Under the pieces are notes generated by a model. The model searched no databases, was not told the DNA's origin, and saw nothing but the letters and a program-made list of their open reading frames with translations. From positions 1,064,311 through 1,128,310 of the forward strand of contig CBDFFW010000001.1 in the NCBI GenBank assembly GCA_965246945.1: DNA of 64,000 bases. The letters are read 5' to 3'. Positions 326 through 45,910 of the stretch are shown here, in pieces; position 1 is the first letter of the stretch, and each line of letters begins with the position of its first letter. A program made the position numbers and the translations under genes. The stretch comes from Alphaproteobacteria bacterium. Its GTDB lineage: Bacteria > Pseudomonadota > Alphaproteobacteria > UBA11073.

Positions 326-805
326 GTGACTGAAGCTGCTTCTAATCAAACCGCAGGGATCAAGCGTCCGCTTTCCCCGCATTTACAGGTTTACCGTTGG
401 CAATGGTCCAATACCTTGTCGATTTTGCATCGGGCTACGGGCTGTGCTTTGGCGGTTGGGTTATTGGTGTTAACTGTGTGGCTGGTGATGGCGGCCATGG
501 GGCCAGCATCTTATACGGATTTTCAAAATTTCGCCGCGCAGCCGCTTAGCATTTTTTGCCTGGTCGGTTGGGGTTGGTGTCTTAGCTACCATTTGTTAAA
601 TGGTATTCGCCATTTGTTTTGGGATGCCGGTGCGGGTTATGAAATTAAAAATGCGGCGGCCAGTGGGTGGTCGGTGGTTTTTGGGTCATTTGTCTTAACC
701 GGTTTAATGTTGGCAGGTGCATATTATCAATACCAAATGGCACCTAAGCAGGTGAGTTATCAAAATGATACTGCACCTGTTGAACCCATGGGCGTGGAGG
801 AATAA
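326..805 (+). CDS. sdhC: Succinate dehydrogenase cytochrome b556 subunit SdhC
   Basis: GTG start preceded by AGGAG at 319-323. The N-terminus KRPLSPHLQVYRWQWSNTLSILHRATG is the conserved SdhC signature. Multiple TM helices. Directly upstream of sdhD and sdhA. Confidence 0.85.
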   Translation: MTEAASNQTAGIKRPLSPHLQVYRWQWSNTLSILHRATGCALAVGLLVLTVWLVMAAMGPASYTDFQNFAAQPLSIFCLVGWGWCLSYHLLNGIRHLFWDAGAGYEIKNAAASGWSVVFGSFVLTGLMLAGAYYQYQMAPKQVSYQNDTAPVEPMGVEE

Positions 806-807
806 TC

Positions 808-1194
808 ATGAAAACCGGTTCCCGCTTACAATCATCCCTTGGCCGTGTCCGTGGTTTAGGTAGTGCCAAATCTGGCGTACACCATTGGTGGGTGCAGCGT
901 TTAACTGCCATCGCTTTATTGCCGCTAAGCACTTGGTTAGTCAGTGCCATGATCATGCTAATCGGCCAACCTTATGACGTGTTTAAGTTGTGGATCAGCA
1001 CGCCCTGGTCGGCGGTGTTGCTGCTAGCGACCGTTTTTTTAATTTATTATCACACCTATTTGGGTTTGCAGGTAGTGCTGGAAGATTATTTAACCGGCCC
1101 GCGCTATTGGATTGTTTCGCTGGTGATTAAGGGCACCATTATGCTGTGCGGCGCACTCTCCCTTTTCTCTATTCTTAAAATTGCTCTAACTTAA
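808..1194 (+). CDS. sdhD: Succinate dehydrogenase hydrophobic membrane anchor SdhD
   Basis: 128 aa, three TM helices, the haem-ligand region HHWWVQRLTAIALLPL, and a start 3 nt after the sdhC stop. Confidence 0.8.
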   Translation: MKTGSRLQSSLGRVRGLGSAKSGVHHWWVQRLTAIALLPLSTWLVSAMIMLIGQPYDVFKLWISTPWSAVLLLATVFLIYYHTYLGLQVVLEDYLTGPRYWIVSLVIKGTIMLCGALSLFSILKIALT

Positions 1195-1767: not shown

Positions 1768-3558
1768 ATGGTTGTCGCATATCCCCTTACTTTTCACGAA
1801 TATGATGTCGTTGTGGTCGGCGCTGGCGGGGCCGGTTTGCGGGCAACATTTGGGATGGCCGAAAAAGGCTTGCGCACCGCGTGTTTAACCAAGGTTTTTC
1901 CGACCCGCTCGCATACGGTAGCCGCACAGGGCGGCATTTCTGCGGCGCTCGGCAATATGGGTGAAGATGATTGGCGCTTTCATATGTATGATACCGTCAA
2001 AGGGTCAGACTGGCTCGGCGACCAAGACGCAATTGAATATATGTGCCGCGAGGCCATTCCGGCGATTATCGAATTGGAACATTACGGCGTGCCGTTTTCA
2101 CGCACGGAAGATGGCAAAATTTACCAGCGCGCTTTCGGCGGGATGACCACGCATTATGGGCAGGGCACTGCTAAGCGCACCTGTGCGGCCGCCGACCGCA
2201 CCGGCCATGCGATGCTGCACACGCTGTATCAACAATCGCTCAAACACAAAGCCGAATTTTTTGTGGAATATTTCGCGCTTGATTTAATTATGGATGAGGA
2301 GGGTGCTTGTAAAGGTGTCCTTGCTTTGAATTTGGATGATGGCAGTTTACACGTTTTCCGCTCGCATCAAGTGGTGCTTGCTACTGGTGGTTATGGACGG
2401 GCTTATTTTTCCTGCACTTCGGCGCATACTTGTACGGGCGATGGCGGCGGTATGGTTGTGCGCGCTGGATTGCCATTGCAGGATATGGAATTCGTGCAAT
2501 TTCATCCAACCGGTATTTATGGCGCTGGCTGTTTGATTACCGAAGGCGTGCGTGGGGAAGGTGGTTATCTGACCAATTCTGAGGGCGAACGGTTTATGGA
2601 ACGTTATGCGCCATCGGCCAAAGATTTAGCCTCACGCGATGTGGTTTCCCGTGCGATGACGATTGAAATTCGCGAAGGGCGCGGTGTCGGCCCGCAGAAA
2701 GACCACATCTTTTTAAACTTACACCATTTGGATCCCGCCATTATTCACGAGCGTTTGCCAGGCATTGCGGAAAGTGCGCGGGTCTTTGCTGGTGTGGATG
2801 TGACCAAGGAGCCGATTCCAGTGCTGCCAACCGTGCATTATAATATGGGCGGAATTCCGACCAATGTGCATACGGAAGTATTAAACCCCACGGCGGAAAA
2901 TCCCCACCGGATAGTGCCAGGTTTGATGGCCATCGGCGAAGCGGCGTGTGTATCCGTGCATGGCGCGAACCGTTTGGGTTCAAATTCACTTTTAGATTTA
3001 GTGGTGTTTGGCCGCGCGGCGGCAATCCAGGCTGCGAAAACTGTAACGCCAGGCGCTACTCATAAATCTTTGCCGGCCACAGCTTATGATCATATTTTAG
3101 CACGTTTGGATAAAACGCGGAATGCGAATGGTCCGGTTAAAGTATCAGCCTTGCGCAATGATATGCAGCGCACCATGCAAAATAACTGTGCCGTTTTCCG
3201 CACAGGCGAGGTGTTGGAAAATGGTGTGCATGAAATTAATGCCATTTATGCCCGCCGGAACGACATCAAAATATCAGACCGTGGCTTAATCTGGAATTCA
3301 GATTTGGTTGAAGCATTAGAATTGGATAATTTATTAGCCAATGCCGTCACCACCTTGCATGCCGCCGTTAACCGCCAGGAATCACGCGGTGCCCATGCGC
3401 GCGAAGATTTTAGCGAGCGGGACGATAAACAATGGTTAAAACACACCATTATTTGGCTGGATGAAGCAGGCCAAAGCCGAATCGATTACCGGCCGGTTAT
3501 CCTGCATACGCTAACCAATGAGGTTGAGCCGGTGCCATTGAAGAAGCGGGTTTACTAG
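1768..3558 (+). CDS. sdhA: Succinate dehydrogenase flavoprotein subunit SdhA
   Basis: 596 aa. FAD motif [12 protein letters not shown], the covalent-FAD histidine context [10 protein letters not shown], and [15 protein letters not shown]. Full-length similarity to SdhA/FrdA. Confidence 0.95.
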
Positions 3559-6028: not shown

Positions 6029-6343
6029 GGCATAACTATGCCAAGCCTGCGGCCAAGCTGCAAATTTAGTTATTAAGAATAAATTCCTTTACAATTATCA
6101 TGCGTTTTGTTATATAGACCAAGCGTGCAAACCGAAGACGCGGGTGCGTAGCGATGCTAGCTATGTTGCGCTTAATAACCTGCCGAGGGATGACGCCCAT
6201 CTGGCCCACACCGCCAGATGCACGCGCGCGTGAAATGTCTTCGCTCGTTTAAAGCGGTAACAGTGTTTCTTTTAACTTAAACAAATCCTGCTAAATTCTG
6301 CTTTTACAGCAATCATCGCCATGGCGATGTTAATATTACACAA

Positions 6344-6447
6344 CCTCATCTTGAGGAGCGCCATTGGCGCGTATCGAAGGATGTTTAATGAAGCCATATC
6401 GTTTAAGCAGCCTTCGATACGCAGCAAAACTGCTACTCAGGATGAGG
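6344..6447. repeat. Family A nested palindromic element, copy A1
   Basis: The outer inverted repeat is CCTCATCYTGAGKAG ... CTACTCAGGATGAGG and the inner one is GTATCGAAGGATG ... CAGCCTTCGATAC. The same architecture recurs five more times in the window. Confidence 0.85.
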
Positions 6448-10712: not shown

Positions 10713-11177
10713 ATGTTGGGTGATTTGCATTTCATGATTATTCAAAGTGAAGCGAATCGTGAAATAACAGATAAACTAGCCGCTGGTGCGATTACCAAGA
10801 TTGAAGAAAATCACGGCAGCTATGAAATTTATTACGTTTCGCAATCACTAGAATTGGGTTTAGCCATCCAATATGCCATTAAAGGCTTGGAATTTACCAA
10901 AGCACGCCGCGCATTTTCCGGTTACATTCCACTGGCTTGCCTAGTTAAAGAGCAAACCACAAATTTTGATTTAATAGCGACTGAGGCGCTGCGTGGAATT
11001 ATTGATTTGGGCATGCGCTATACTATCGCGCTAGGTAATGGCTTATTGATTTGCGATACGGTTGAACAAGCACAAAAGCAAAGTAATTCTAATGCGCAAA
11101 ATTATGGGGCAATTGCCGCCAGCCAGTGTTTCCGAGCGATTGAATTAAAAAGCCAATTTTCACTGCTGCGTAAATAA
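10713..11177 (+). CDS. ribH: 6,7-dimethyl-8-ribityllumazine synthase, tandem paralogue (copy 2)
   Basis: Also 154 aa, roughly 50% identical to copy 1 over the full length, starting 3 nt after its stop. Confidence 0.8.
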   Translation: MLGDLHFMIIQSEANREITDKLAAGAITKIEENHGSYEIYYVSQSLELGLAIQYAIKGLEFTKARRAFSGYIPLACLVKEQTTNFDLIATEALRGIIDLGMRYTIALGNGLLICDTVEQAQKQSNSNAQNYGAIAASQCFRAIELKSQFSLLRK

Positions 11178-12476
11178 CCAAGTATTGGCATCGGCGGCGA
11201 TTTGTTCGCCGGTTTGCATATTTTTAACTTCATCACCAGCCCCATCAGCGCCCAAAAACCACACATACGGAATACTTTTTTTATCGGCATAACCCAATTG
11301 TTTCTGCACCTTTTGCGCTGCGTGATAGACTTCAACATTTAATCCGCGGGCACGAAAATCTTGGGCAAGTGCTTGGGCGCGCGGGCGGTCTTCCTCATTT
11401 AACAATGCGATTAAAATTTGGGTTGGAGAGGCAGGTATTGGTTGAATATGGCCTTCCTTAAGCAGCTTGCTGAATAGCCGCGTTAAACCGAAGGAAATGC
11501 CAACGCCTGGTAAATGCTTGTTGATATAAGAACCTGCCAAGTCATCATACCGGCCGCCGGCAATCACGGTGCCGAAATCGGGATAGCTGGTAAATTTTCC
11601 TTCATAGACGGTGCCGGTGTAATAATCCAAACCGCGCGCGATGCCGAGATTGGCGGCAACCGCACCGGCCGGTAAATCTTTCAAGTAAGACATCACAAAA
11701 CTAAGTTCTTCCATACCTTGCGCCAGCAATGCATGGGAAACGCCAAGGGCACTCACCTGTTGCGCAAAACCATTATCACTGGTTTTAATTTGCGCCAAGG
11801 CCAAGGCTTTGTTGGCAGCTTCAGCGTGCATACCCAAAGTTTGCAATTCCGCATGCACCATATCGGCGCTGGCTTTATCAAGTTTATCCAGCGCGCGAAT
11901 GGCGGCCATGGGTTCGGCCACATCCAAACCGCGCAAAAAGCCTTCGAGAATTTTGCGGTTGTTAAGATGGATTTGCACATCGCTAATTTTAAGCGCGGTT
12001 AGCAAATCAAACATGATCAACGGCATTTCCCCATCAAAATGCAGCGGTAGTTGATCAACTGCAATCACATCAATATCGCATTGGTAAAACTCACGGAAAC
12101 GCCCTTCTTGCGGGCGTTCACCGCGCCAAACGCGTTGAAGCTGATAACGTTTAAATGGAAAGCTGAGATTATTAAAATGCTGCGCCACATAACGCGCCAT
12201 CGGTACGGTTAAATCAAAATGCAGGGCCAGGCGCGCTTCCTTGGCTTCATCCGGATCGGTATGCAAGCGTTGCAAGACATATAATTCTTTGTCAGTTGCG
12301 CCTTTAGCATCAATCACTTCCAAAGCTTCCACACTTGGCGTTTCCAAGTTAATAAAGCCATAACTTTCAAACACGCGGCGAATGGTATCAAGCCATTGCA
12401 ATTCCACCCGCCGAATTTCCGGACTCCATTCAGGGAAACCACTGATTGGCTGGGGTTTGTGAATTACTTTGCTCAT
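11160..12476 (-). CDS. hisS: Histidine--tRNA ligase
   Basis: 438 aa. Class II motifs including RGLDYYTGTVYE, and a C-terminal anticodon-binding domain (...VKNMQTGEQ). Its 3' end overlaps the ribH copy 2 stop by 18 nt, convergently. Confidence 0.85.
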   Translation of the reverse strand: MSKVIHKPQPISGFPEWSPEIRRVELQWLDTIRRVFESYGFINLETPSVEALEVIDAKGATDKELYVLQRLHTDPDEAKEARLALHFDLTVPMARYVAQHFNNLSFPFKRYQLQRVWRGERPQEGRFREFYQCDIDVIAVDQLPLHFDGEMPLIMFDLLTALKISDVQIHLNNRKILEGFLRGLDVAEPMAAIRALDKLDKASADMVHAELQTLGMHAEAANKALALAQIKTSDNGFAQQVSALGVSHALLAQGMEELSFVMSYLKDLPAGAVAANLGIARGLDYYTGTVYEGKFTSYPDFGTVIAGGRYDDLAGSYINKHLPGVGISFGLTRLFSKLLKEGHIQPIPASPTQILIALLNEEDRPRAQALAQDFRARGLNVEVYHAAQKVQKQLGYADKKSIPYVWFLGADGAGDEVKNMQTGEQIAADANTWLFTQQ

Positions 12477-13285: not shown

Positions 13286-13451
13286 CTGACAGTGAAACTG
13301 TCATCCCGGACAAGAGAAGCGAAAGCGGAGCTTGAGTGGATCGCAGATCCGGGACCCAAAGAATATTACGTGCGCAGCAAAGCTGCACGCTTTATTTCTT
13401 TAGATCCCGGGTCAGCCGTTCGGCTATGCCTCACTGCCCGGGATGACAGTG
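13286..13451. repeat. Family B palindromic element, copy B1 (long-arm variant)
   Basis: The arms are GTCATCCCGG..N27..CCGGGATC on the left and its reverse complement on the right. It sits between the zeta-like gene and the rpsA 3' end. Confidence 0.8.
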
Positions 13452-13453
13452 TC

Positions 13454-15295
13454 TTATTCTTCGTCGGTTTCAGCCGTTTCACTGTCTTGGTTAGTTGTTT
13501 GGGCTTTGCGCAAGGCAGCACCTAAAATGCTACCTAAAGATGCGCCGGATTCGGATGAACCAAACTCGGCAATCGCCGCTTTTTCTTCGGCGAATTCATG
13601 CGCTTTGATTGATAGTTCGATGCGTTTGGCTGATTTCATCACTGCGATGATTTTGGCATCAACCTTATCGCCCACGGCAAAACGGTTGGTGCGCTGCTCT
13701 GCGCGGTCACGTGACAATTCAGCCCGTTTGATGATGCCGTAGATTTTGTCGTTCACCAACACTTCGATATTATCATCCCGCACGGCAGTTACCGTACCTG
13801 TTACCACATCACTTTTTTTCAGGGAGTTAATCGCGGTCATGGCCGGATCTTCACCCGTTAATTGCTTGATGCCAAGGGCAACACGTTCGCGGTCGGTATC
13901 GACATCCAAAACGCGGGCGGTGACTTGTGCACCTTTGGCGTAAGCTTTAACGGCTTCTTCACCCGTTTGATCCCATGACAAATCATTGATGTTGATCATG
14001 CCATCCACACCACCTGGCAGGGCGATGAACATCCCCAGTTCAGTAATGTTAACGAGCTCGCCGGTGTAATCCGAACCAGCAGGGTGGGTTTTGGCAAACT
14101 CAACCCATGGGTTATCGCTAAGTTGTTTGAGACCCAGGGAAATGCGGCGTTTTTCACGGTCGACTTCCAAAATTTGCGCTTCAATGGTTTGGCCTTCTTG
14201 CACAAATTTGGCTGGATCATTCTGCAATTTGCGATTCCAGGTCATTTCCGCGACATGGATCATACCTTCCATGCCATCGCCAAAAGTAACATAGGCGCCC
14301 AAATCGGTCACGCCGGTTACTTCACCTTTGATTTTTTGACCGACCTGTAATTGGTCATCTTTGCCTTCCCATGGATCGGCTTGCAATTGCTTCATGCCCA
14401 AGGAAATCCGTTGGCTTTCGCGGTTGAAACGAATCACCACGACTTCCACTTGCTGGCCAATGGTCAATGCATCGGATGGGTGGTTGAGACGCTGCCAAGA
14501 AATATCGGTCATATGCAATAAACCGTCAACGCCGCCCAGATCAATAAACGCGCCGTAATCGGTGATGTTTTTCACAGTACCGGTGAGTTGTTGGCCTTCA
14601 CGCAGGTCTGAAATCAATTCAGCCCGCGCATCCGCACGGGTTTCTTCAAGCACAGCGCGACGAGAGACAACGATATTGCCGCGCGCACGATCCATTTTCA
14701 AAAGCACGAAAGGCTGCGCTACATTCATCAATGGATTGGTATCTTTTAATGGACGGATATCTAATTGCGAGCCAGGCAAGAACGCAATCGCGCCGTTAAG
14801 ATCAACGGTAAAGCCGCCTTTGACTTTGCTGAAAATGGTGCCCATAACATGTTTGCCAGTAATATGGGCTTCTTCCAATTCCACCCAGATTTCTTCGCGG
14901 CGCGCCCGTTCGCGGGATAGCACCGCTTCGCCTTCTTTGCCTTCAATTTTGTCGACATAGACATCGACCAGGTCGCCAATCTGCACGGTAGTGGCATCGT
15001 CGCCCGCACCGAATTCACGGCGTGGTACGCGGCCTTCAGCTTTCATGCCAACATCGACCATTACGAAATCATGGGTGATATCGACAACAAGACCTTTAAC
15101 CACTGAGCCTTCAATCGAAGGGCCGCTGCCAAAATTTTCATTTAGCAGATTAGTAAATTTTTCTTTTTCTGCAGGAACGTAACCAGGTAATGGGAAATCC
15201 AAGCCATGGACATATTTACGGGTTTGGCCTTTGGCCACTTGAGATGCGCGCGGCATATTGGGGTGTCTTTCGTTTGGTTGTGTCATTCCGGACAA
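13454..15295 (-). CDS. rpsA: 30S ribosomal protein S1
   Basis: 613 aa with six S1 domains. Both ends of the ORF run into family B repeats, so the true start is probably the internal Met (MTQPNE..., near 15286) or later. Confidence 0.9.
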   Translation of the reverse strand: MSGMTQPNERHPNMPRASQVAKGQTRKYVHGLDFPLPGYVPAEKEKFTNLLNENFGSGPSIEGSVVKGLVVDITHDFVMVDVGMKAEGRVPRREFGAGDDATTVQIGDLVDVYVDKIEGKEGEAVLSRERARREEIWVELEEAHITGKHVMGTIFSKVKGGFTVDLNGAIAFLPGSQLDIRPLKDTNPLMNVAQPFVLLKMDRARGNIVVSRRAVLEETRADARAELISDLREGQQLTGTVKNITDYGAFIDLGGVDGLLHMTDISWQRLNHPSDALTIGQQVEVVVIRFNRESQRISLGMKQLQADPWEGKDDQLQVGQKIKGEVTGVTDLGAYVTFGDGMEGMIHVAEMTWNRKLQNDPAKFVQEGQTIEAQILEVDREKRRISLGLKQLSDNPWVEFAKTHPAGSDYTGELVNITELGMFIALPGGVDGMININDLSWDQTGEEAVKAYAKGAQVTARVLDVDTDRERVALGIKQLTGEDPAMTAINSLKKSDVVTGTVTAVRDDNIEVLVNDKIYGIIKRAELSRDRAEQRTNRFAVGDKVDAKIIAVMKSAKRIELSIKAHEFAEEKAAIAEFGSSESGASLGSILGAALRKAQTTNQDSETAETDEE

Positions 15296-15410
15296 GAGTA
15301 GCGAGGCGAAGGCCGAGCGGATCGCAGATCCGGAATCTAGGAGTTAATATGTGCGAAGCTTTGCTTCGCGCTTTGTTTAGTCACTAGATCCCGACTTTCG
15401 TCGGGATGAC
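15282..15410. repeat. Family B palindromic element, copy B2
   Basis: The left arm is the long variant (GTCATTCCGGACAAGAG...GATCCGGAATC). The right arm is the short variant (CACTAGATCCCGACTTTCGTCGGGATGAC). It sits between cmk and rpsA. Confidence 0.85.
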
Positions 15411-20567: not shown

Positions 20568-20576
20568 TTGAATGGG

Positions 20577-20704
20577 TGATCCCGATAAAAATCGGGATCC
20601 AGTGATATAAATATGCGCGGTAGCGCTCAAGATAGTTTGTTTTGTGTCATGCTAATAAGCATGACGAGTTTGATCACTGGATTCCGGCTTTCGCCGGAAT
20701 GACG
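20577..20704. repeat. Family B palindromic element, copy B3
   Basis: GATCCCGATAAAAATCGGGATCCAGTG ... central GTCATGCTAATAAGCATGAC ... CACTGGATTCCGGCTTTCGCCGGAATGACG. Confidence 0.8.
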
Positions 20705-25012: not shown

Positions 25013-25099
25013 GTCATCCCAGCGCAAGCTGGCATCCAAACGCAACTAACAAATTCATTGTCGGTGCTGGACTAGATCCCGGCTTGCGCTGGGATGACG
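25013..25099. repeat. Family B palindromic element, short variant B4
   Basis: GTCATCCCAGCGCAAGCTGG ... CTAGATCCCGGCTTGCGCTGGGATGACG. It sits between convergent mltG and pyrF. Confidence 0.75.
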
Positions 25100-25827: not shown

Positions 25828-25934
25828 CCTCATCCTGAGTAGCCATGCAAAGTATGGCGTATCGAAGGATGCTTGACCAGAGTATAGCGTTGGAGCATCC
25901 CTCAATACGCGCTTTGCGCTACTCAGGATGAGGT
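25828..25934. repeat. Family A nested palindromic element, copy A2
   Basis: ACCTCATCCTGAGTAG...GTATCGAAGGATGC...GCATCCCTCAATAC...CTACTCAGGATGAGGT. Confidence 0.85.
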
Positions 25935-26669: not shown

Positions 26670-26717
26670 TTGTGGGGATTATTAGTTATAATATACAAAT
26701 CTACAAGCTTCTCTTCA

Positions 26718-26823
26718 CCTCGTCCTGAGTAGGGCATCGCCCGTATCGAAGGATGCTCCAGCTATATACCTTGGTTAAGCATCCTTCGATACAAACGTTA
26801 AGGCGTTCTAATCAGAATGAGGT
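26718..26823. repeat. Family A nested palindromic element, copy A3 (right outer arm degenerate)
   Basis: CCTCGTCCTGAGTAG...GTATCGAAGGATGC...GCATCCTTCGATAC...CTAATCAGAATGAGG. Confidence 0.8.
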
Positions 26824-26874
26824 TTGTTGAATTTGTTGAAGCATGTTGCAGCGCATGGCACAAATAGTCGTTCA

Positions 26875-34592: not shown

Positions 34593-34703
34593 CCTCATCC
34601 TGAGGAGCCAAGCATCGCTTGGTGTCTCGAAGGATGCTCTAGTGGAATTGCCAGCTTAAGCATCCTTCGAGACGCAGCTTATTAGCTGCTCCTCAGGATG
34701 AGG
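34593..34703. repeat. Family A nested palindromic element, copy A4
   Basis: CCTCATCCTGAGGAG...GTCTCGAAGGATGC...GCATCCTTCGAGAC...CTCCTCAGGATGAGG. Both arms carry compensatory changes, so the pairing is preserved. Confidence 0.85.
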
Positions 34704-34914
34704 TGGGGCGCTATATGTCTTGGTTTGCAAATCTTGGCAAGCACAATATCTTGTGTTTTTTTGTGATTAACCCATTGCAAGCCGCCTATTTCCCTGCTTA
34801 GAGTATTTTCAGCGTTAGCAGATCTAGCATTTAAGCGGGTTTGCGGCGTGGCAGAGATTGCAGGACCAGTAAACTGGCGGGTCTCTGGCTTAAACATCAT
34901 TGAAGGGGATTCCC

Positions 34915-35293: not shown

Positions 35294-35418
35294 GTCATCC
35301 CGACGAAAGTCGGGATCTAGTGGTATAATCTGCGCGAAGCGCTCAAAATTATTATTTTGCATTACGCTAAAGCATAATACTTTTTAATCACTGGATTCCG
35401 ACTTTCGTTGGGATGACG
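35294..35418. repeat. Family B palindromic element, copy B5
   Basis: GTCATCCCGACGAAAGTCGGGATCTAGTG ... CACTGGATTCCGACTTTCGTTGGGATGACG. Confidence 0.85.
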
Positions 35419-35422
35419 ATAT

Positions 35423-36043
35423 CTAGAAAATCTGTTGCCACTTTTCTTGCAACACTGCATCTACCTCCGCCATGCCCACTTGTTTACCAAGCGCATGTAT
35501 GGAGGTCACACCGAATTCGCTGATGCCGCAGGGGATGATGCCGATATAATGGGATAGGTCTGGGTTTACATTTAAGGCGATGCCGTGAAAGCTAACGCCG
35601 CGGCGCACGCGCAGGCCGATGGCGGCAATCTTAGCTTCTTGCCCGCGGTTATCTATAGTCCAAATGCCAACGCGGCCAGACCGTCTTTCGCCCTTAATAT
35701 CAAATTCGGCCAGGGTTTGAATCAGCCATTCTTCCAACTGACAGACCAAGCGGCGCACATCAAGCTCGCGTTTGAATAAATCTAGCATGACATAGGCGAT
35801 GCGCTGACCTGGTCCGTGATAAGTATATTGCCCGCCGCGGCCAGTTTGATGCACAGGGAAGCGTGCTTGCAGTAAATCTGCGGCTTTGGCACTGCTGCCA
35901 GCGGTGTACAGGGCAGGGTGTTCTAATAGCCAAACCAGCTCATCGGCATCGGCAGCGCGGATTGTCGCCACGCGGGTTTCCATGGCCGCAACTGCCGCTG
36001 GATAATCCTGCAATTCCTTGCTTATTTGCCATTCGAGGGTCAT
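35423..36043 (-). CDS. lipB: Octanoyltransferase (lipoyl(octanoyl) transferase)
   Basis: 206 aa with the LipB catalytic region (…[12 protein letters not shown]…, …[19 protein letters not shown]…, cysteine in …IIPCGI…). Confidence 0.85.
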
Positions 36044-36256: not shown

Positions 36257-36346
36257 CCTCGTCCTGAGTATTGAAGGATGCTTAACTGGGGTATATCGCT
36301 GGAGCATCCTTCGATACGAACGCGCTGCGTTCTACTCAGGATGAGG
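36257..36346. repeat. Family A nested palindromic element, copy A5 (left inner arm shortened)
   Basis: CCTCGTCCTGAGTA-TTGAAGGATGC...GCATCCTTCGATAC...CTACTCAGGATGAGG. Confidence 0.8.
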
Positions 36347-36401
36347 TTATGTATTAATAAGGGCATTTGCTAAAAAGCGTTTATGTGATTAATTTAATTG
36401 T

Positions 36402-37115: not shown

Positions 37116-37122
37116 TACTGAC

Positions 37123-37225
37123 CTCTTCCTGAGTAGCGCTGCAAGCGCGTATCGAAGGATGCCTATGGTTCCACCCTCATTAAGCATCCTTCGATACAAA
37201 TGCTGCGCGTTTTACTCAGGATGAG
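37123..37225. repeat. Family A nested palindromic element, copy A6
   Basis: CCTCTTCCTGAGTAG...GTATCGAAGGATGC...GCATCCTTCGATAC...TTACTCAGGATGAG. Confidence 0.85.
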
Positions 37226-37247
37226 ATTTGTTTAAGGTATAAAAATT

Positions 37248-39497: not shown

Positions 39498-40313
39498 ATG
39501 AAAAAGACCGCCCTTATCACCGGCAGTGCCAAACGAATTGGTGCGGTAATTGCGCAGCATTTGGCGGCCGCTGGTTATGATATTGTTATTCATTATCACC
39601 GCAGTGTTGTTGAAGCTAAGCAGTTGGCAGACCAATTAACCACACAATATCGGGTTAAAGCTTCAACAGTTGCCGCTGACCTAGCCAATTTGGTGCAAGT
39701 TGAAAATTTATGGCAGCAGATAATTGCGCAAGCAGGCCAAATTGATTTGCTGATAAATAATGCGGCCTGGTTCGATCCTGCCAATGATCCAGTTGAACAT
39801 AGCGATCCGCAAATTACTAAAACAGTCTGGCAAATTAATACGCATACACCGCAGCGTTTAAGTGAATTATTTGCCGCGCAAAACGGTTTAACAAATGGCC
39901 ATATCATTAATATTTTGGATTATCGGGTCTTGAAACCCAGTGGGAGCTTTCCAATTTATACCGCTAGCAAAACTGCTTTATGGCAAGTTACTCAGCAGCT
40001 TGCATTGGATTACGCGCCAACTGTTCGCGTAAATGCGTTGGCATTAGGCATGGCGATGCGGGCCAATGACCAAACGCAAGAACATTTTGAAAAGCATATT
40101 ATGGCAGCACCTTTGCAACGCAGCGGCGATGCGGATGAAATTGCCTGTGCTGTTTTAGCGTTAGAAAATCTATCGAGTGTGACCGGACAAATTTTGGCTT
40201 TGGACGGCGGTATGCATTTAACCAACGTCATCCCGACGAAAGTCGGGATCCAGTGGCCAACAGTACAATGCGAAGCTTTGTTCAAAAAATTAATTTTATT
40301 TGCATCACGCTAA
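39498..40313 (+). CDS. SDR-family oxidoreductase (pteridine/monapterin reductase-like); the last ~30 codons come from repeat B6
   Basis: TGSAKRIGAVIA cofactor motif and catalytic Y..K in ...YTASKTAL.... The SDR fold ends near ...ALDGGMHL. The remaining tail (…TNVIPTKVGIQWPTVQCEALFKKLILFASR) is encoded by the repeat. Confidence 0.7.
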   Translation: MKKTALITGSAKRIGAVIAQHLAAAGYDIVIHYHRSVVEAKQLADQLTTQYRVKASTVAADLANLVQVENLWQQIIAQAGQIDLLINNAAWFDPANDPVEHSDPQITKTVWQINTHTPQRLSELFAAQNGLTNGHIINILDYRVLKPSGSFPIYTASKTALWQVTQQLALDYAPTVRVNALALGMAMRANDQTQEHFEKHIMAAPLQRSGDADEIACAVLALENLSSVTGQILALDGGMHLTNVIPTKVGIQWPTVQCEALFKKLILFASR

Positions 40314-40360
40314 AGCGTGACAATTATAATCACTGGATCCCGACTTTCGTCGGGATGACG
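40227..40360. repeat. Family B palindromic element, copy B6, overlapping the 3' ends of two convergent CDS
   Basis: GTCATCCCGACGAAAGTCGGGATCCAGTG ... CACTGGATCCCGACTTTCGTCGGGATGACG. Read on either strand the arm encodes VIPTKVGIQ. Confidence 0.85.
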
Positions 40361-41079
40361 AGGCCTAAAACATCCTGCATATCGTATTGACCAGGCGGTT
40401 TATTTAAAACCCAGCTGGCGGCATGCACTGCGCCGCGCGCAAAAATGGCGCGGTCCGTGGCGCGGTGGGTTAGCTCTAGCCGCTCTTGCTGGCCGAAGAA
40501 AAAGGCTGTGTGTTCACCGGCAACGTCACCGCCGCGGGCGACACTGAAGCCGATATGGCCAGTTGCGCGCACACCAGTATGGCCATCACGAGCCGCAACT
40601 TTATTTGTTGCTAAATCTATATTCCGGCCCTTCGCAGCAGCCTGACCGAGCATTAATGCCGTACCACTTGGCGCATCAACTTTTTGATTGTGGTGTGTTT
40701 CAAAAATTTCAATATCGAATAATTCGGGCGGCAAGGTTTGCGCAGCGCGTTCGATCAGCCAGTTGAGTACATTCACGCCCAAGGAATAATTGGCGGCATA
40801 AACCACGGCTTGATTTTGCGCATAGTTTTTGATCAGCAGTTCCTGATCTGGGGATAATCCCGTGGTGCCAATCACCAGGCGGGGCTTGGTCGATTGTTGG
40901 GCAGCCCAATTTAATAAGGCTGCCGTTGCTTCCGGCGTGCTGAAATCAATGATTACAGCGCTGCCGGCCAACGCCGCCAAATCATCACCGCGGTCGACAG
41001 CTTTGAATAAATGATTGCCTGCCAGCTGAACCAATTGCTGGCCCATACGCCCCTTGGCACCGTGAATACTGATTTTCAT
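40330..41079 (-). CDS. dapB: 4-hydroxy-tetrahydrodipicolinate reductase
   Basis: MKISIHGAKGRMGQ NAD(P) motif and the DapB catalytic region (…FETHHNQKVDAPSGTAL…). The last 9 codons (VIPTKVGIQ) come from repeat B6. Confidence 0.85.
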   Translation of the reverse strand: MKISIHGAKGRMGQQLVQLAGNHLFKAVDRGDDLAALAGSAVIIDFSTPEATAALLNWAAQQSTKPRLVIGTTGLSPDQELLIKNYAQNQAVVYAANYSLGVNVLNWLIERAAQTLPPELFDIEIFETHHNQKVDAPSGTALMLGQAAAKGRNIDLATNKVAARDGHTGVRATGHIGFSVARGGDVAGEHTAFFFGQQERLELTHRATDRAIFARGAVHAASWVLNKPPGQYDMQDVLGLVIPTKVGIQ

Positions 41080-43233: not shown

Positions 43234-43242
43234 TTAGCGCCG

Positions 43243-43372
43243 TCATTCCGACGAAAGTCGGAATCCAGTGGTTGATAAGTGCAATGCATCGCATTGCTCA
43301 AACAATAATTATTTTGTGTCATGCTGCGCATGACGAGTCTGGGTCACTGGATCCCGATTTGCATCGGGATGA
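43243..43372. repeat. Family B palindromic element, copy B7
   Basis: GTCATTCCGACGAAAGTCGGAATCCAGTG ... central GTCATGCTGCGCATGAC ... CACTGGATCCCGATTTGCATCGGGATGACG. Confidence 0.85.
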
Positions 43373-45739
43373 CGATTCTGTTTCAATCAAATGTGCTAGG
43401 AAATCAGCAGGACGTTTGTTGGAATCTTGCGCCATCCATTGGTGATAGATAACGGTGGATGGCGTGAGACCTGGCAAAGTATTGGCTTCGATCAGCAGCG
43501 CTTGATCGGTTTTGATGTTAAAGAAAATATCGAGACGGGCGTAGTTTTGGATGCCGAGTGTCGCAGCCGCCTTTTCGATTTTGCTTTCAATTATTGTCCG
43601 TTGCGCGGCGCTGATGATACTGACCGGCGGCGGCGTTAAATTCACGCCTGTCCCACCTTGGAATTTTTCTTCCAAGCTTAAGACCGCATTGGCCGCCACC
43701 GTGATACTTGGCGGCAGGGATTGATATATACCGTTTTGCTCCAGAACACCAACGGTCAATTCAATCCAGCCAGTGTGGGCTTCATGTTTTAATTCTGTAC
43801 CGACAATTTGCAGGTGATCGGTTTCAATGTAAGGTTCTAAAATATACTTACTGCTGTGTGCGCTGGCGAGTTCGACAATTTCTGGTTGTTCGGCAAAACT
43901 ATGCGGCGGAAAAAAGCTGGCACCTGCACGCAGGAATTTGCCGTAAATGGCAAGTTGGACAGCATCGCTGAGTTTAATCACGCCAGCCGAACAGCCTTCA
44001 TCTTGTGGTTTTAGGATCAATTTTTGGGACTGCCAATTGGTGGTTAATTCCTGCCACAAGTCAACCCAATCGGTGCTGGCATTTTCCAGATCCGCTTGGC
44101 TTAGATGATGTTTGGGGCAGGCAGTTAACTGTTTATCGCGCAGGGCATCAATCGCAGCGCCGGTTGCGAGTTTATCCATGCATAATGCCGAAGCCGCTGA
44201 ACCCGAACCGTTATAATGCAGACCGCGCCCATCAAGCTCTGCCTGCAACCGGCCATCTTCACCCATGCCGCCATGCAAGCCTAAAAAGACAAAGGCATTT
44301 TGTGCTGCCGCTTTCTGTAAGAAGTTTTCTAATGATAAAGATTGCGGTTCGGCTAATGCGGCTTGCTGTTCGATTTCACTATAGCCAAGCGCCGGTAAAA
44401 TTTGTGGTAGATACGGCTTCAAACTGGCCGTGATACTGGCGCTATCGGCACAGCTGTGCATAATTTCTTCAACCGTGTGTTGCAGGGCATAAGCATAGGG
44501 CAATTGCCAGATGGTTTGCGCATCGGTGCCAAGTAGAAATAGCTGCGGTGAACAATTTGCCGTCTGTTGCAATTTCAGCCAAACATTGGTCCCGCTCATC
44601 AATGAAACTTGCCGCTCGGCCGTGCTGCCGCCACAAATTACGGCGACCAGCTCTGTGCCATTACGCGGTTGGGCCGGCGGTAAGACAACGCCATGCCGCT
44701 GGGCCGCACTGTTTAGAACATGGCGTAAAACCTGGCGGTGGGTGAGGCCGATGCGGGCGGCTTGTTGGAATAAAAAGCTGTTCTGTTCCATTCCGCTAAT
44801 CGGGTTTAAATCAGAAAATAAAACGGTGCCGTCTTTTAACCACCAGCCATCCAAGCGCGCAAAATCCTGCATGCCGAATAATTTAAAAATCTGCGCTGCC
44901 TGCTGGCGGATGGTGTTAATCACATTGGTAGGAAAACGCGGCGGGCAGAAATAAGCGGCTTGGTTGGTGGGTAGATATTTGCGGCGAAAATCGAAGATTT
45001 GATTGTCTTGGTAACTAACTGCGATTTCGCTGGGTAGCAATGCAACGGGTTCGCCGTCTGTGCCGGTTAGCACAACAATAGTAAATTCCTGGCCATCACA
45101 AAATGGTTCAATCATCACACGGCTATCATGCGTCTGGGCGAGCAGTTTATCGGCCGCAGCAGTGGCGGCTTCAGCGCTAGCCACCGAATGCACGCCAATG
45201 CTGCTGCCACCGGCCACGGGTTTAACGACAGCGCGCTGCAAATTATGTGTGCGCCAAAAAACGGGAATGGCCGTGCTTTCTTCCGCTTGGCTGACGGTGA
45301 GACTGGGCAGCGTGGCCAGGCCATTGGCCCGCAATATACTGGCCGCAACATCTTTGAAAAACATTTGGCGGCAGGCGGCGGCTGGGCTGGCAACATATGG
45401 AATATCATGCTGCTCTAAAAAATTCTGGAGCTGACCATCTTCGCCGTAAGCGCCATGAATGGCGGGGAAAACCAGATGGCAAGCTTGCAGTGCTTCAACC
45501 ACCTGTTTTTCATTCAAAACCTGTGCGGTTTCGGCGAGTTTGAAATCGAAATCAGAAGGCGTGTTTGAATAAAGTTGGGTGGTGGAAAGCCGATAAAATT
45601 TCAGTTTCTCATCCACATAAAATGGCACAATTTCGATATTGCTATCGGCGATATGATCAAGCAGGGAACGAGCAGAATTAAGGGAAATACCCCGCTCGGC
45701 CGATGGCCCGCCACAAATCACTGCAAGTTGAAATGACAT
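43319..45739 (-). CDS. Tandem fusion of two D-alanine--D-alanine ligase-like ATP-grasp modules (806 aa)
   Basis: Two N-terminal Ddl-type motifs (LAVICGGPSAERGISLNSA and VAVICGGSTAERQVSLMSG), each followed by an ATP-grasp region. The last ~17 codons (…ESSSRCKSGSSDPDSSCAA) lie inside repeat B7. Confidence 0.65.
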   Translation of the reverse strand: MSFQLAVICGGPSAERGISLNSARSLLDHIADSNIEIVPFYVDEKLKFYRLSTTQLYSNTPSDFDFKLAETAQVLNEKQVVEALQACHLVFPAIHGAYGEDGQLQNFLEQHDIPYVASPAAACRQMFFKDVAASILRANGLATLPSLTVSQAEESTAIPVFWRTHNLQRAVVKPVAGGSSIGVHSVASAEAATAAADKLLAQTHDSRVMIEPFCDGQEFTIVVLTGTDGEPVALLPSEIAVSYQDNQIFDFRRKYLPTNQAAYFCPPRFPTNVINTIRQQAAQIFKLFGMQDFARLDGWWLKDGTVLFSDLNPISGMEQNSFLFQQAARIGLTHRQVLRHVLNSAAQRHGVVLPPAQPRNGTELVAVICGGSTAERQVSLMSGTNVWLKLQQTANCSPQLFLLGTDAQTIWQLPYAYALQHTVEEIMHSCADSASITASLKPYLPQILPALGYSEIEQQAALAEPQSLSLENFLQKAAAQNAFVFLGLHGGMGEDGRLQAELDGRGLHYNGSGSAASALCMDKLATGAAIDALRDKQLTACPKHHLSQADLENASTDWVDLWQELTTNWQSQKLILKPQDEGCSAGVIKLSDAVQLAIYGKFLRAGASFFPPHSFAEQPEIVELASAHSSKYILEPYIETDHLQIVGTELKHEAHTGWIELTVGVLEQNGIYQSLPPSITVAANAVLSLEEKFQGGTGVNLTPPPVSIISAAQRTIIESKIEKAAATLGIQNYARLDIFFNIKTDQALLIEANTLPGLTPSTVIYHQWMAQDSNKRPADFLAHLIETESSSRCKSGSSDPDSSCAA

Positions 45740-45783: not shown

Positions 45784-45910
45784 GTCATCCCGACGGAAGT
45801 CGGGATCTAGTGATAAATTAATGAATCATGCTGGCATGATACAAAATTATTCTTTTTTGAGCGCTACGCGCAGTTTTAGTCACTGGATCCCGACTTTCGT
45901 CGGGATGACG
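45784..45910. repeat. Family B palindromic element, copy B8
   Basis: GTCATCCCGACGGAAGTCGGGATCTAGTG ... central ATCATGCTGGCATGAT ... CACTGGATCCCGACTTTCGTCGGGATGACG. Confidence 0.85.

Follow-up and report, generated by a model that had tools for sequence, protein, structure and literature searches.

A predicted CGTC-1 REP dimer encodes the C-terminal tails of DapB and a convergent SDR-family oxidoreductase

Genes and repeat at the SDR/dapB junction

The genome is compact, with about 90% coding sequence, and its convergent genes abut or overlap. At one such junction in the stretch of DNA analysed here (the 64-kb window), a gene for an SDR-family oxidoreductase (39498-40313, + strand, 271 aa) converges with dapB (40330-41079, - strand, 249 aa). 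As the earlier note had observed, both reading frames run into a repeat, here called B6, which overlaps the two 3' ends. The inverted-repeat element is indeed present, but it occupies 133 bp from 40227 to 40359 (no strand assigned), so that the right end given previously, 40360, lies one base too far.

B6 is built as two predicted REP hairpins of the CGTC-1 type arranged head to head around an AT-rich spacer of ~75 bp. Its arms (GTCATCCCGACGAAAGTCGGGATCCAGTG), of 29 nt each, are inverted copies that are complementary at 29 of 29 positions. Both the left arm (40226-40256, + strand) and the right arm (40330-40360, - strand) carry the tag (C)GTC, a GAAA loop and the tail CCA, after which the left arm continues with GTGG and the right arm with GTGA. 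The 8-bp stem of the left arm pairs 40230-40237 with 40242-40249 and is supported by covariation; that of the right arm pairs 40349-40356 with 40337-40344 on the - strand. The left arm has TGG at 40254-40256 in place of the consensus TGA, and the TGA of the right arm (40330-40332) is the stop codon of dapB. When folded as RNA, B6 is predicted to form a 31-bp stem (-74 and -80 kcal/mol; z scores of -12.5 and -10), and the dapB stop codon sits within it. A promoter and terminator scan around B6 found no intrinsic terminator, and since the element is without a U-tract it is not called one here.

Repeat-encoded tails

In DapB the final nine codons, VIPTKVGIQ (40333-40359), and the stop codon are element DNA, and the protein ends DVLGL+VIPTKVGIQ. 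In the SDR the element contributes the final 28 codons (40227-40310) and the TAA at 40311-40313, that is, VIPTKVGIQ followed by 19 further codons (WPTVQCEALFKKLILFASR). Since the two frames share one codon register although they lie on opposite strands, and since each arm is the inverted copy of the other, both genes read the arm in the same phase and obtain a common nonapeptide. DapB stops after it because the consensus arm has TAG or TGA next in that phase, and the SDR reads past it because of the TGG in the left arm. The previous statement that both proteins end in VIPTKVGIQ is thus accurate for DapB, but not for the SDR.

The Ddl-Ddl protein is affected as well. B7 (43241-43374, no strand assigned), a REP heterodimer whose arms have different, internally compensated stems, provides the last 17 full codons and 2 nt of the 18th of the 806-aa Ddl-Ddl reading frame, in agreement with the ~17 codons estimated before. 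The repeat-derived tail and its stop occupy 43319-43375 on the - strand; the protein runs through ...SGSSDPDSSCAA into the tail and ends ...SSSRCKSGSSDPDSSCAA.

Homologues do not carry these tails. The comparison of C-termini that the earlier note had proposed was run for DapB, the SDR and Ddl-Ddl, and no repeat tail was found among 120 homologues per gene; likewise, a motif search for the repeat peptides found no carrier among the 360 proteins from the three homologue searches, 357 of which are homologues. DapB alignments end by residue 246 of 249 in all 120 listed homologues, mostly at 240, and the 60 DapB C-termini that were examined have, as a rule, 0-3 residues after DVLGL, with a few having up to ~13. 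The closest relatives of the SDR end GGMHLNGFQG and GGMHLSGKTL, five residues past GGMHL, and the closest relative of Ddl-Ddl (P0242, 82% identity) ends AHLIETATSK. Because the Pfam profiles are fully covered upstream of B6 (DapB_C at DapB residue 238, adh_short_C2 by SDR residue 240), the tails lie outside the protein folds. There are no in-frame stops between the ends of the conserved domains and the element.

Family B and the CGTC-1 REPs

B6 and B7 belong to family B, for which nhmmer finds eight copies in the window; the 20-nt core of the arm occurs 10 times there, against 0 expected from shuffles. Di Nocera, De Gregorio and Rocco 2013 (PMC3733652) define CGTC-1 REPs by an unpaired CGTC tag (TGTC and CCTC being allowed), an 8-bp stem starting A-T, T-A, a 4-nt loop and an unpaired 3-nt CCA tail. 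Most form head-to-head dimers, in which small stem-loops occupy a spacer of 20-100 bp, and they are found near 3' ends, at a distance of up to 20 bp, where ORFs are convergent or co-directional; long-loop variants are also noted.

The arms of family B (28-30 nt) follow this plan, with CGTC, an 8-bp stem opening AT, a 4-nt loop and a CCA or CTA tail, then GTGA. Across 14 aligned arms, 13 have GTC and 12 the complete CGTC (the left arm of B5 has TGTC, that of B3 GGTG), the first two stem pairs are A-U and U-A in all 14, and the tail is CCA in 10 and CTA in 4. Eight arms have the loop GAAA, and the rest have GCAA, AAAA, GGAA or TCAT. Of the cells in the aligned 8-bp stems, 96.4% are paired, four of the eight pairs show compensatory changes, and no shuffle reaches the observed score. 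The tags are outermost in all eight copies, the spacers (~26-75 bp) are structured and AT-rich, and the copies lie close to 3' ends at convergent or co-directional junctions. Long-loop variants occur in both arms of B1 and in the left arm of B2.

Judged by primary sequence and predicted folding, family B consists of CGTC-1 REPs paired head to head. It shares with the repeats published in PMC3733652 the tag, stem, loop, tail, dimer layout, alphaproteobacterial host, 3'-end position, occasional overlap with ORF ends and VIPxxxGI-type peptides; Rickettsia RPE-6 and Neisseria dRS3 belong to this class. Family B differs in its specific stem sequence (ATCCCGAC) and in a tail extended to CCAGTGA, stop codon included. 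The previous reading as generic insertion elements missed the identity of the repeat as a CGTC-tagged REP hairpin dimer. Since Rfam at gathering thresholds matched only two tRNAs, repeat families A and B are not described RNA families.

The remaining copies, to none of which a strand was assigned, are found in comparable positions. B1 (13300-13447), a variant dimer with arm loops of 25-30 nt, is 6 nt downstream of the rpsA stop and does not overlap the gene, and B2 (15282-15410), a hybrid that combines a long-loop arm on the left with a standard one on the right, separates the rpsA start from the cmk stop, which is 26 nt away. Three copies occupy junctions of convergent genes: B3 (20576-20703), with the two stops at distances of 8 nt and 4 nt; B4 (25013-25098), a short dimer of 86 bp between mltG and pyrF, whose stops are 7 nt and 9 nt away; and B5 (35294-35417), between HU and lipB, the stop of the latter being 5 nt away. 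B8 (45784-45909) follows the radC stop by 2 nt and precedes the Ddl-Ddl start. Seven of the eight copies overlap a stop codon or sit at most 9 nt from one. Five are at convergent junctions, three at co-directional and none at divergent ones, so that five of 10 convergent junctions are occupied as compared with three of 52 others (Fisher p = 0.0017). REPs at convergent junctions with both ORF ends under 20 bp away are reported in PMC3733652. When the arm is read in the GTC phase, 11 of 16 readings stop after 7-9 codons.

The exact 29-nt arm is also present in 26 metagenome contigs with a GC content of 33-67%. On one of these contigs (L041) an ABC ATPase reads through REPs at its C-terminus. Other metagenome ORFs that overlap REPs were discarded, many being Arg-rich wrong-frame ORFs of high-GC DNA, and the ATPase alone is credible.

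Insertion into the overlap of two convergent genes

A search of genome contigs with DapB returned distant relatives only (at most 57% identity), none of them usefully syntenic, and usable relatives were found through the contigs that encode the homologues. The sole syntenic relative (L031) is distant, with 66% identity in DapB and 74% in the SDR, and the name of its contig record carries '2x', which we read as low coverage. Here B6 is absent, the dapB and SDR genes overlap by 21 nt, and the site of B5 is empty too. With the family A and B profiles, no family A copy was detected in this contig or a second one (L032), and the only hits were a REP whose partner arm is truncated and another that has collapsed.

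Relics of two stop codons flank B6. On the left, TTA at 40218-40220 (TAA on the - strand) has the position of the dapB stop in the relative and is now only a Leu codon of the SDR gene; on the right, TAA at 40366-40368 (+ strand) aligns with the SDR stop TAG of the relative and is now only a Leu codon of dapB on the - strand. Removal of exactly 40227-40359 brings back both ancestral frames, with their stops at orthologous positions and nothing duplicated. The reconstructed overlap is 18 nt long, TTA ACC AAC / GAG GCC TAA (TTAACCAACGAGGCCTAA). Given that the relic stops lie beyond the element from each gene, are in frame after its removal and match the positions in the relative, only an insertion inside the overlap fits. 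We infer this insertion from one outgroup and the relic stops.

B6 would have entered between codons 3 and 4 of the 18-nt overlap without target-site duplication, and the SDR gene and dapB would each have lost their final two codons and stop. Both genes now read the nearest arm of B6 up to the first in-frame stop, which for the SDR, with TGG in its arm, is the TAA in the spacer. The case also shows that an insertion where convergent genes overlap is survivable, given that the repeat carries stop codons in every phase. B7 probably did likewise to the last few codons of Ddl-Ddl, in a different phase (SSRxKSGSS...). Reconstruction of the empty site does not discriminate for B7: a nearby stop is regained in two of the three possible excision phases, so that the exact boundaries are not fixed.

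We consider it highly probable that family B is a non-coding REP dimer, selfish or semi-domesticated, that the insertion of B6 gave both tails, and that these are tolerated by-products. Tolerance would rest on the naturally variable C-termini of the proteins concerned, and the tails, presumably translated and neutral, would not be designed peptides. REP-encoded C-terminal peptides are known, for example VIPAKAGI, residues 232-240 of a 242-aa protein (PMC3733652), and B6 is a clean case of this documented side effect and not a new mechanism; the current understanding is unchanged by it. In the accessible part of Di Nocera et al. 2013 (PMC3733652), we met no case of one dimer inside the overlap of two convergent genes supplying both C-termini. 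From the flanking relic stops, the place where this CGTC-type REP dimer went in can be given to the nucleotide, with no target duplication, and insertion data of this precision are scarce for CGTC-type REPs.

Alternative origins of the tails

Alternatively, the repeats might first have been intergenic, the genes having grown into them by stop loss or frameshift instead of receiving them in coding sequence. For B6 this account conflicts with the two relic stops, which occupy the stop positions of the relative and come into frame when the element is excised. It fits B7 better: in the syntenic relative, the same cobS/ddl junction holds a REP that has collapsed, 5 nt past the Ddl-Ddl stop, and the length of the Ddl-Ddl tail differs among close relatives. 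A loss of the stop with read-through into an older REP is therefore possible at B7; as an account of the tails we consider this origin unlikely.

A classical MITE, i.e. a deletion derivative of an IS moved in trans by a DDE transposase and making target-site duplications, would resemble family B in its size (~130 bp), its terminal inverted repeats, its AT-rich centre and its multiple copies. MITEs that overlap ORF ends have moreover been described in Coxiella and enterobacteria. QMITE1 and QMITE2 of Coxiella burnetii (Wachter et al. 2018, PMC5896051) and the enterobacterial RU-1/2/3 repeats (Delihas 2007, PMC2759123) are small, non-autonomous elements that overlap annotated ORFs and can add peptide; their sizes and sequences are, however, unlike those of family B, and the QMITEs end in direct repeats and, in QMITE2, include a GTAG REP. 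We regard a MITE origin as very improbable here, for no direct repeats flank any of the eight copies, and exact excision of B6 restores both frames without a duplication. No parent IS is present in the window, which covers 64 kb of the 1.79-Mb genome. The conserved unit, in addition, is the single arm hairpin and not the pairing of arm with arm: the arm stems of B3 and of B7 differ, each being compensated, and the syntenic relative has arms that are alone or collapsed. The arm itself agrees with the CGTC-1 definition on every point.

It could also be argued that the tails are functional and selected, either as C-terminal degrons or tags, or through a stem that stalls ribosomes and so tunes dapB, ddl and the SDR gene. 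The 31-bp stem does enclose the dapB stop codon, the Ddl-Ddl tail ends AA like many distant Ddl-Ddl homologues, and REPs of E. coli serve as 3'-UTR terminators and stabilisers. According to work attributed to Liang, Rudd and Deutscher in 2015, REPs up to ~15 nt from a stop reportedly lower translation via ribosome stalling and tmRNA. Against selection, the peptides are merely three reading phases of one DNA repeat, they are absent in all homologues including the closest, and in neither of the two closest Ddl-Ddl relatives is AA the C-terminus. Because the C-termini of these families naturally differ in length, neutral tolerance suffices, and we strongly doubt that the tails have been selected. 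It seems just as doubtful that REP dimers form a transferable module of post-transcriptional control, in which the stop codon in the 31-bp stem couples translation termination of dapB and ddl, essential genes of the lysine pathway and cell wall, to RNA cleavage or ribosome rescue. Were this true, a mobile hairpin would also turn convergent overlaps into a shared bidirectional 3' structure, and the conservation of the 29-nt arm across 33-67% GC would reflect a conserved protein partner.

An artefact is scarcely credible: although palindromes are error-prone and three other genes (rpsA, pyrF and LOG, see below) proved to be cases of over-long ORFs, the source is a 1.79-Mb contig, the 249-, 271- and 806-aa products are recorded gene models, the frames are uninterrupted from the conserved domain ends to the element, and eight independent copies have one common structure.

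Relation to other repeat systems

With family B taken as a REP dimer, its possible means of spread can be compared with those of similar hairpins. The NTS of Neisseria has the same 28-nt layout of CGTC, 8-bp stem, loop GMAV, 8-bp stem and CYRG (PMC11893778), and the family B arm is identical to the NTS consensus at 22 of 28 positions. NTS/dRS3 hairpins are recognised by Ssn, a GIY-YIG single-strand nuclease that cuts ssDNA near the motif and modulates transformation; movement of the repeats by Ssn is not shown in that study (PMC11893778). The ssn gene encodes a small single-domain GIY-YIG protein (cd10448) and is typically flanked by the motif, and an Ssn-related motif has been reported in Rickettsia, Wolbachia and Sphingomonas-type alphaproteobacteria (Nat Commun 2025, PMC11893778).

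Family B differs from this system in that most arms miss the SRM pattern, HGTCWYN(0-2)YYVSBRHN(0-5)WNVSBRGN(0-2)RNCYNB. Because just two of 16 arms, the right ones of B3 and B4, fit it, strict SRM membership is not claimed; the others deviate at a single paired position of the stem, with A in place of B. A further difference is that no ssn gene was found in the window, where crude motif scans detected neither a GIY-YIG nor a transposase ORF. On one metagenome contig with the exact arm (L039), a GIY-YIG-like ORF lies directly beside a dimer. We suggest that hairpins of single-stranded DNA may be the means by which family B spreads, perhaps helped by a GIY-YIG nuclease of the Ssn type whose gene would lie outside the window.

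Rickettsia palindromic elements, which Ogata et al. reportedly found in 2000 to be inserted in frame in protein genes, are similar to family B in that palindromic repeats are translated within otherwise normal proteins and are tolerated. Classic RPE-1, however, keeps the frame into native sequence, whereas family B replaces the extreme 3' end and supplies the stop: all three affected genes end inside the element, and their native codons are lost.

GTAG REPs, REPINs (a term said to come from Bertels and Rainey in 2011) and BIMEs have in common with family B the short, tagged, inverted hairpin pairs, the 3'-end location, the lack of target duplication and the proposed roles in stabilising or terminating RNA 3' ends; GTAG termini sometimes supply stops as well. 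By analogy with such REPs, the 31-bp RNA stem of B6 might serve as a 3'-end stabiliser or terminator. The tag differs (GTAG vs CGTC), and RAYT tyrosine transposases go with the GTAG type. An association of CGTC repeats with RAYTs was not known as of 2013, and a non-exhaustive scan of the window saw no RAYT gene.

Consequences for annotation

Tails of 9-28 residues, encoded in frame by repeat DNA, are carried by three housekeeping proteins of this genome, and such tails are not to be read as lineage-specific motifs. The proposal that the insertions had remodelled gene termini holds for dapB, the SDR gene and Ddl-Ddl, but does not extend to rpsA, pyrF and LOG, where the gene models and homology indicate artefacts of taking the longest ORF, with upstream extensions that should be trimmed in annotation as repeat-derived N-termini. 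The rpsA ORF had been said to begin and end inside B2 and B1; only the longest ORF starts in B2 (TTG 15295), the recorded model of 600 aa starting outside it at ATG 15256, and the stop (13454-13456) is 6 nt outside B1. Nor do pyrF and LOG run into the family A copies A2 and A3, as had been supposed from their long ORFs. The recorded pyrF model (235 aa) starts at ATG 25815, outside A2, and in LOG family homology begins at residue 26, with the likely start, ATG 26875, lying outside A3.

Repeat-encoded ends of the SDR protein and DapB

The convergent genes for an SDR-family oxidoreductase (SDR, 271 aa; 39498-40313, plus strand) and DapB (249 aa; 40330-41079, minus strand) both extend into B6, a 133-bp inverted-repeat element of family B at 40227-40359, one base shorter than the end at 40360 given in the earlier note. 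Its left arm is GTCATCCCGACGAAAGTCGGGATCCAGTG, its right arm is the exact reverse complement across 29 nt, and each arm is a hairpin by itself (ATCCCGAC-GAAA-GTCGGGAT). Both proteins had been said to end in VIPTKVGIQ. The nonapeptide is present in both, but is terminal only in DapB (...DVLGL-VIPTKVGIQ), where the right arm provides the stop: its CCA tail is followed by GTGA, which contains the TGA codon (40330-40332). In the left arm this TGA is replaced by TGG (40254-40256), and the SDR protein (...GGMHLTN-VIPTKVGIQ) reads on through WPTVQCEALFKKLILFASR to a TAA stop at 40311-40313. The Pfam profiles end ahead of B6 in both proteins, DapB_C (1-121 of 121 covered) at residue 238 and adh_short_C2 (236 of 236 reached) at residue 240.

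When the C-termini of DapB, SDR and the 806-aa Ddl-Ddl protein were compared with those of homologues, as the earlier note had proposed, repeat-type peptides were confined to the window proteins; a motif search of 360 proteins from three homologue searches returned these three only. Among the best 120 DapB homologues none aligned beyond residue 246 of 249, and most end at 240; in 60 C-termini inspected, DVLGL is usually followed by 0-3 residues, in a few by up to about 13. The closest SDR homologues end in GGMHLNGFQG (74% identity) and GGMHLSGKTL (61% identity), and the closest Ddl-Ddl homologue (82% identity) ends in AHLIETATSK, where the window protein has AHLIETE-SSSRCKSGSSDPDSSCAA. Since C-terminal length is naturally variable in all three families, the added residues are plausibly tolerated.

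Insertion point and reading phase

A 25-kb ENA contig from a relative (L031) is syntenic with this region (lipB, HU, cinA, mazG, a kinase gene, the SDR gene, dapB, ahpC). Here, the SDR gene and dapB are convergent and overlap by 21 nt without the element (...ATGCATTTAAACGGTTTTCAGGGCTAGCACATCCTGCAT...). With 40227-40359 removed, the window reads ...ATGCATTTAACCAAC joined to GAGGCCTAAAACATCCTGCAT..., SDR ends in MHLTNEA, DapB ends in DVLGLVG, and the overlap is 18 nt. The relic stops (TTA, 40218-40220; TAA, 40366-40368) occupy the same positions as the two stops of the relative. Because a shift of either B6 boundary by one base loses both restored stops, the comparison indicates that exactly the 133-bp segment GTCA...TGAC was inserted, without target-site duplication. 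Elsewhere in the window, another convergent pair (10713-11177, plus; 11160-12476, minus) overlaps by 18 nt at 11160-11177 and has no repeat, an arrangement that matches the SDR gene and dapB as reconstructed before insertion.

The ancestral overlap had the SDR and dapB codons aligned in register across the two strands (TTA ACC AAC GAG GCC TAA). Because of this register, and with B6 inserted at a codon boundary of both genes, the two genes read into identical inverted arms in one common phase, GTC ATC CCG ..., giving the shared nonapeptide. Of the 16 arm readings that the window offers in this phase, 11 end at TAG or TGA after 7-9 codons. The remaining phases (SSRRKSGSS... and HPDESRDPV...) mostly stop in 10-30 codons, a few at 53-118.

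The Ddl-Ddl tail is in the second of these phases, SSRRKSGSS.... The gene (43319-45739, minus strand) encodes a tandem fusion of two D-Ala-D-Ala ligase units. Metagenome bins of alphaproteobacteria and chlamydiae contain thousands of proteins of this family, ~800 aa long, and many of those more distantly related end in ...AA. The proposal that B7 (about 43242-43373) supplies its last codons held, the tail being repeat-derived and absent from the closest homologue. Its repeat origin is certain, but the case is less clean than that of B6. Two of three possible excision phases give back a nearby stop, one of them yielding ...IETECAN, equal in length to the 82% homologue. In the relative, a collapsed REP (TGTCATCCCGGC-ACAAG-GCCGGGATGACA) with tags on both sides lies 5 nt beyond the Ddl-Ddl stop at the same cobS/ddl junction. 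The tail may thus reflect insertion into the C-terminus or read-through into an older REP. The relative's contig has two REP-like sites (470-500 and 2048-2112), the collapsed single palindrome at cobS/ddl and, near ahpC, a REP whose partner arm is truncated; both may be decay products of dimers.

Family B and known repeat classes

When at most 3 mismatches are allowed, the window has 10 matches to the 20-nt arm core and 100 shuffles have none. Using a profile made from the copies, eight elements were found: B1 (13300-13447, a long-loop variant), B2 (15282-15410, a hybrid of a long-loop and a standard arm), B3 (20576-20703), B4 (25013-25098, short at 86 bp), B5 (35294-35417), B6, B7 and B8 (45784-45909). 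Across 14 arms compared, 96% of stem positions are paired, with compensatory changes at 4 of 8 stem pairs; in B3 and B7 the two arms have unlike stems, each compensated internally. Judged by this pairing, the conserved unit is the single hairpin. Since GAT directly follows 4 of the 8 copies, the right end of the element, or a target preference, may reach 2-3 nt beyond TGAC. The B5 site (HU/lipB) is also empty in the relative. B5 and the lipB stop are separated by 8 nt (35418-35425, GATATCTA) that are unlike the relative's sequence, and LipB ends in WQQIF in the window versus WQQIFEK in the relative.

Family B arms agree with all criteria given for CGTC-1 REPs in the published description (PMC3733652). 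These are a CGTC tag that is unpaired, an 8-bp stem whose first two pairs are A-T and T-A, a loop of 4 nt and a CCA tail, with dimers arranged head-to-head, tags outermost, around 20-100 bp spacers that contain small stem-loops. Hosts are mostly alphaproteobacteria, as are the sources of homologues of the window DapB. According to that paper, REPs at convergent junctions lie <20 bp from both ORF ends, their termini may overlap coding regions, and they can encode C-terminal residues (VIPAKAGI, residues 232-240 of 242 in R. conorii RC0483). The finding at B6 is real, and more precise than the earlier note could have made it; it exemplifies known behaviour of a known repeat class. What it adds is modest: double donation to overlapping convergent genes, the register argument, and nucleotide-exact insertion without duplication.

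The Neisseria NTS (CGTCATTCCCGCGMAVGCGGGAATCYRG) has the same 4+8+4+8+4 layout and 22 of 28 bases in common with the family B arm. A 2025 paper (PMC11893778) shows that small GIY-YIG nucleases (Ssn) bind this motif in single-stranded DNA and cut it, and that it often flanks their genes. The link to Ssn would be a lead rather than membership, because the published degenerate motif pattern (PMC11893778) is matched by 2 of 16 arms and motif scans of the 64-kb window found no GIY-YIG ORF.

Distribution and possible effects

Of the 10 convergent junctions in the window, 5 contain a family B copy, compared with 3 of the 52 remaining junctions (Fisher p = 0.0017); no divergent junction has one. Seven of the eight copies overlap a stop codon or lie within 9 nt of one, in a window of ~90% coding density. 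The six standard copies of full length all have their best score in the same orientation, and GC skew is positive over nearly all of the window. This is compatible with strand-specific insertion via single-stranded DNA, although with so few copies it is only suggestive.

The exact 29-nt arm (GTCATCCCGACGRAAGTCGGGATCYAGTG) is found in 26 JGI metagenome contigs (L033-L058) of 33%-67% GC. Retention of an unchanged hairpin across such different genomes points to horizontal spread, to a protein partner that recognises the sequence, or to both. In one contig (L041), REPs are read through at the C-terminus of an ABC-type ATPase. In another (L039), a GIY-YIG-like ORF (666-1097, minus strand; ...YVYLLASAR...AITREKQIKEWKRAWKIELIEKSNPYWNDLY) that looks internally shortened lies directly downstream of a REP dimer, which agrees with the NTS-ssn arrangement reported for Ssn (PMC11893778).

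Both transcripts across B6 are predicted to form a 31-bp perfect stem (-74.3 and -79.7 kcal/mol; z = -12.5 and -10). A scan around B6 gave no match to an intrinsic terminator, and B6 has no U-tract. E. coli REPs suggest, by analogy, that both convergent transcripts may be stabilised or terminated by B6.

Other gene termini and family A

Four further termini had been described as lying inside repeats or running into them, but these cases do not stand up. For rpsA, a start within B2 applies only to the longest ORF (TTG 15295); the recorded 600-aa product starts at ATG 15256, outside B2, and the S1 family model aligns from residue 42 of the longest ORF. Its stop (13454-13456) is 6 nt outside B1. 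The pyrF product, recorded as 235 aa, has its start codon (ATG 25815, with GAGGGAG ahead of it) outside the family A copy A2; the end of A2 is 11 nt upstream and adjoins the Shine-Dalgarno sequence. The long LOG ORF aligns with its family only from residue 26 onwards, and A3 does not include the likely start, ATG 26875.

A second repeat, family A, is a nested palindrome of ~110 bp that is present six times, in both orientations (6343-6447, 25828-25934, 26717-26826, 34593-34704, 36257-36347 and 37121-37227). The outer arms have the sequence CCTCATCCTGAG.AGC...GCT.CTCAGGATGAGG, with inner arms of CGTATCGAAGGATGC...GCATCCTTCGATACG. Although its very large filled loop sets it apart, the outer arm is similar to CGTC repeats of the CCTC-tag variant. 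No copies were found in the relatives' contigs L031 and L032.

A ~570-nt gap (1195-1767) between sdhD (808-1194) and sdhA (1768-3558) is unusually long for a genome with a coding density of ~90%. It contains no start-codon-bounded ORF of at least 40 aa and no notable repeats; on the minus strand, a stop-to-stop frame of 121 codons crosses it.
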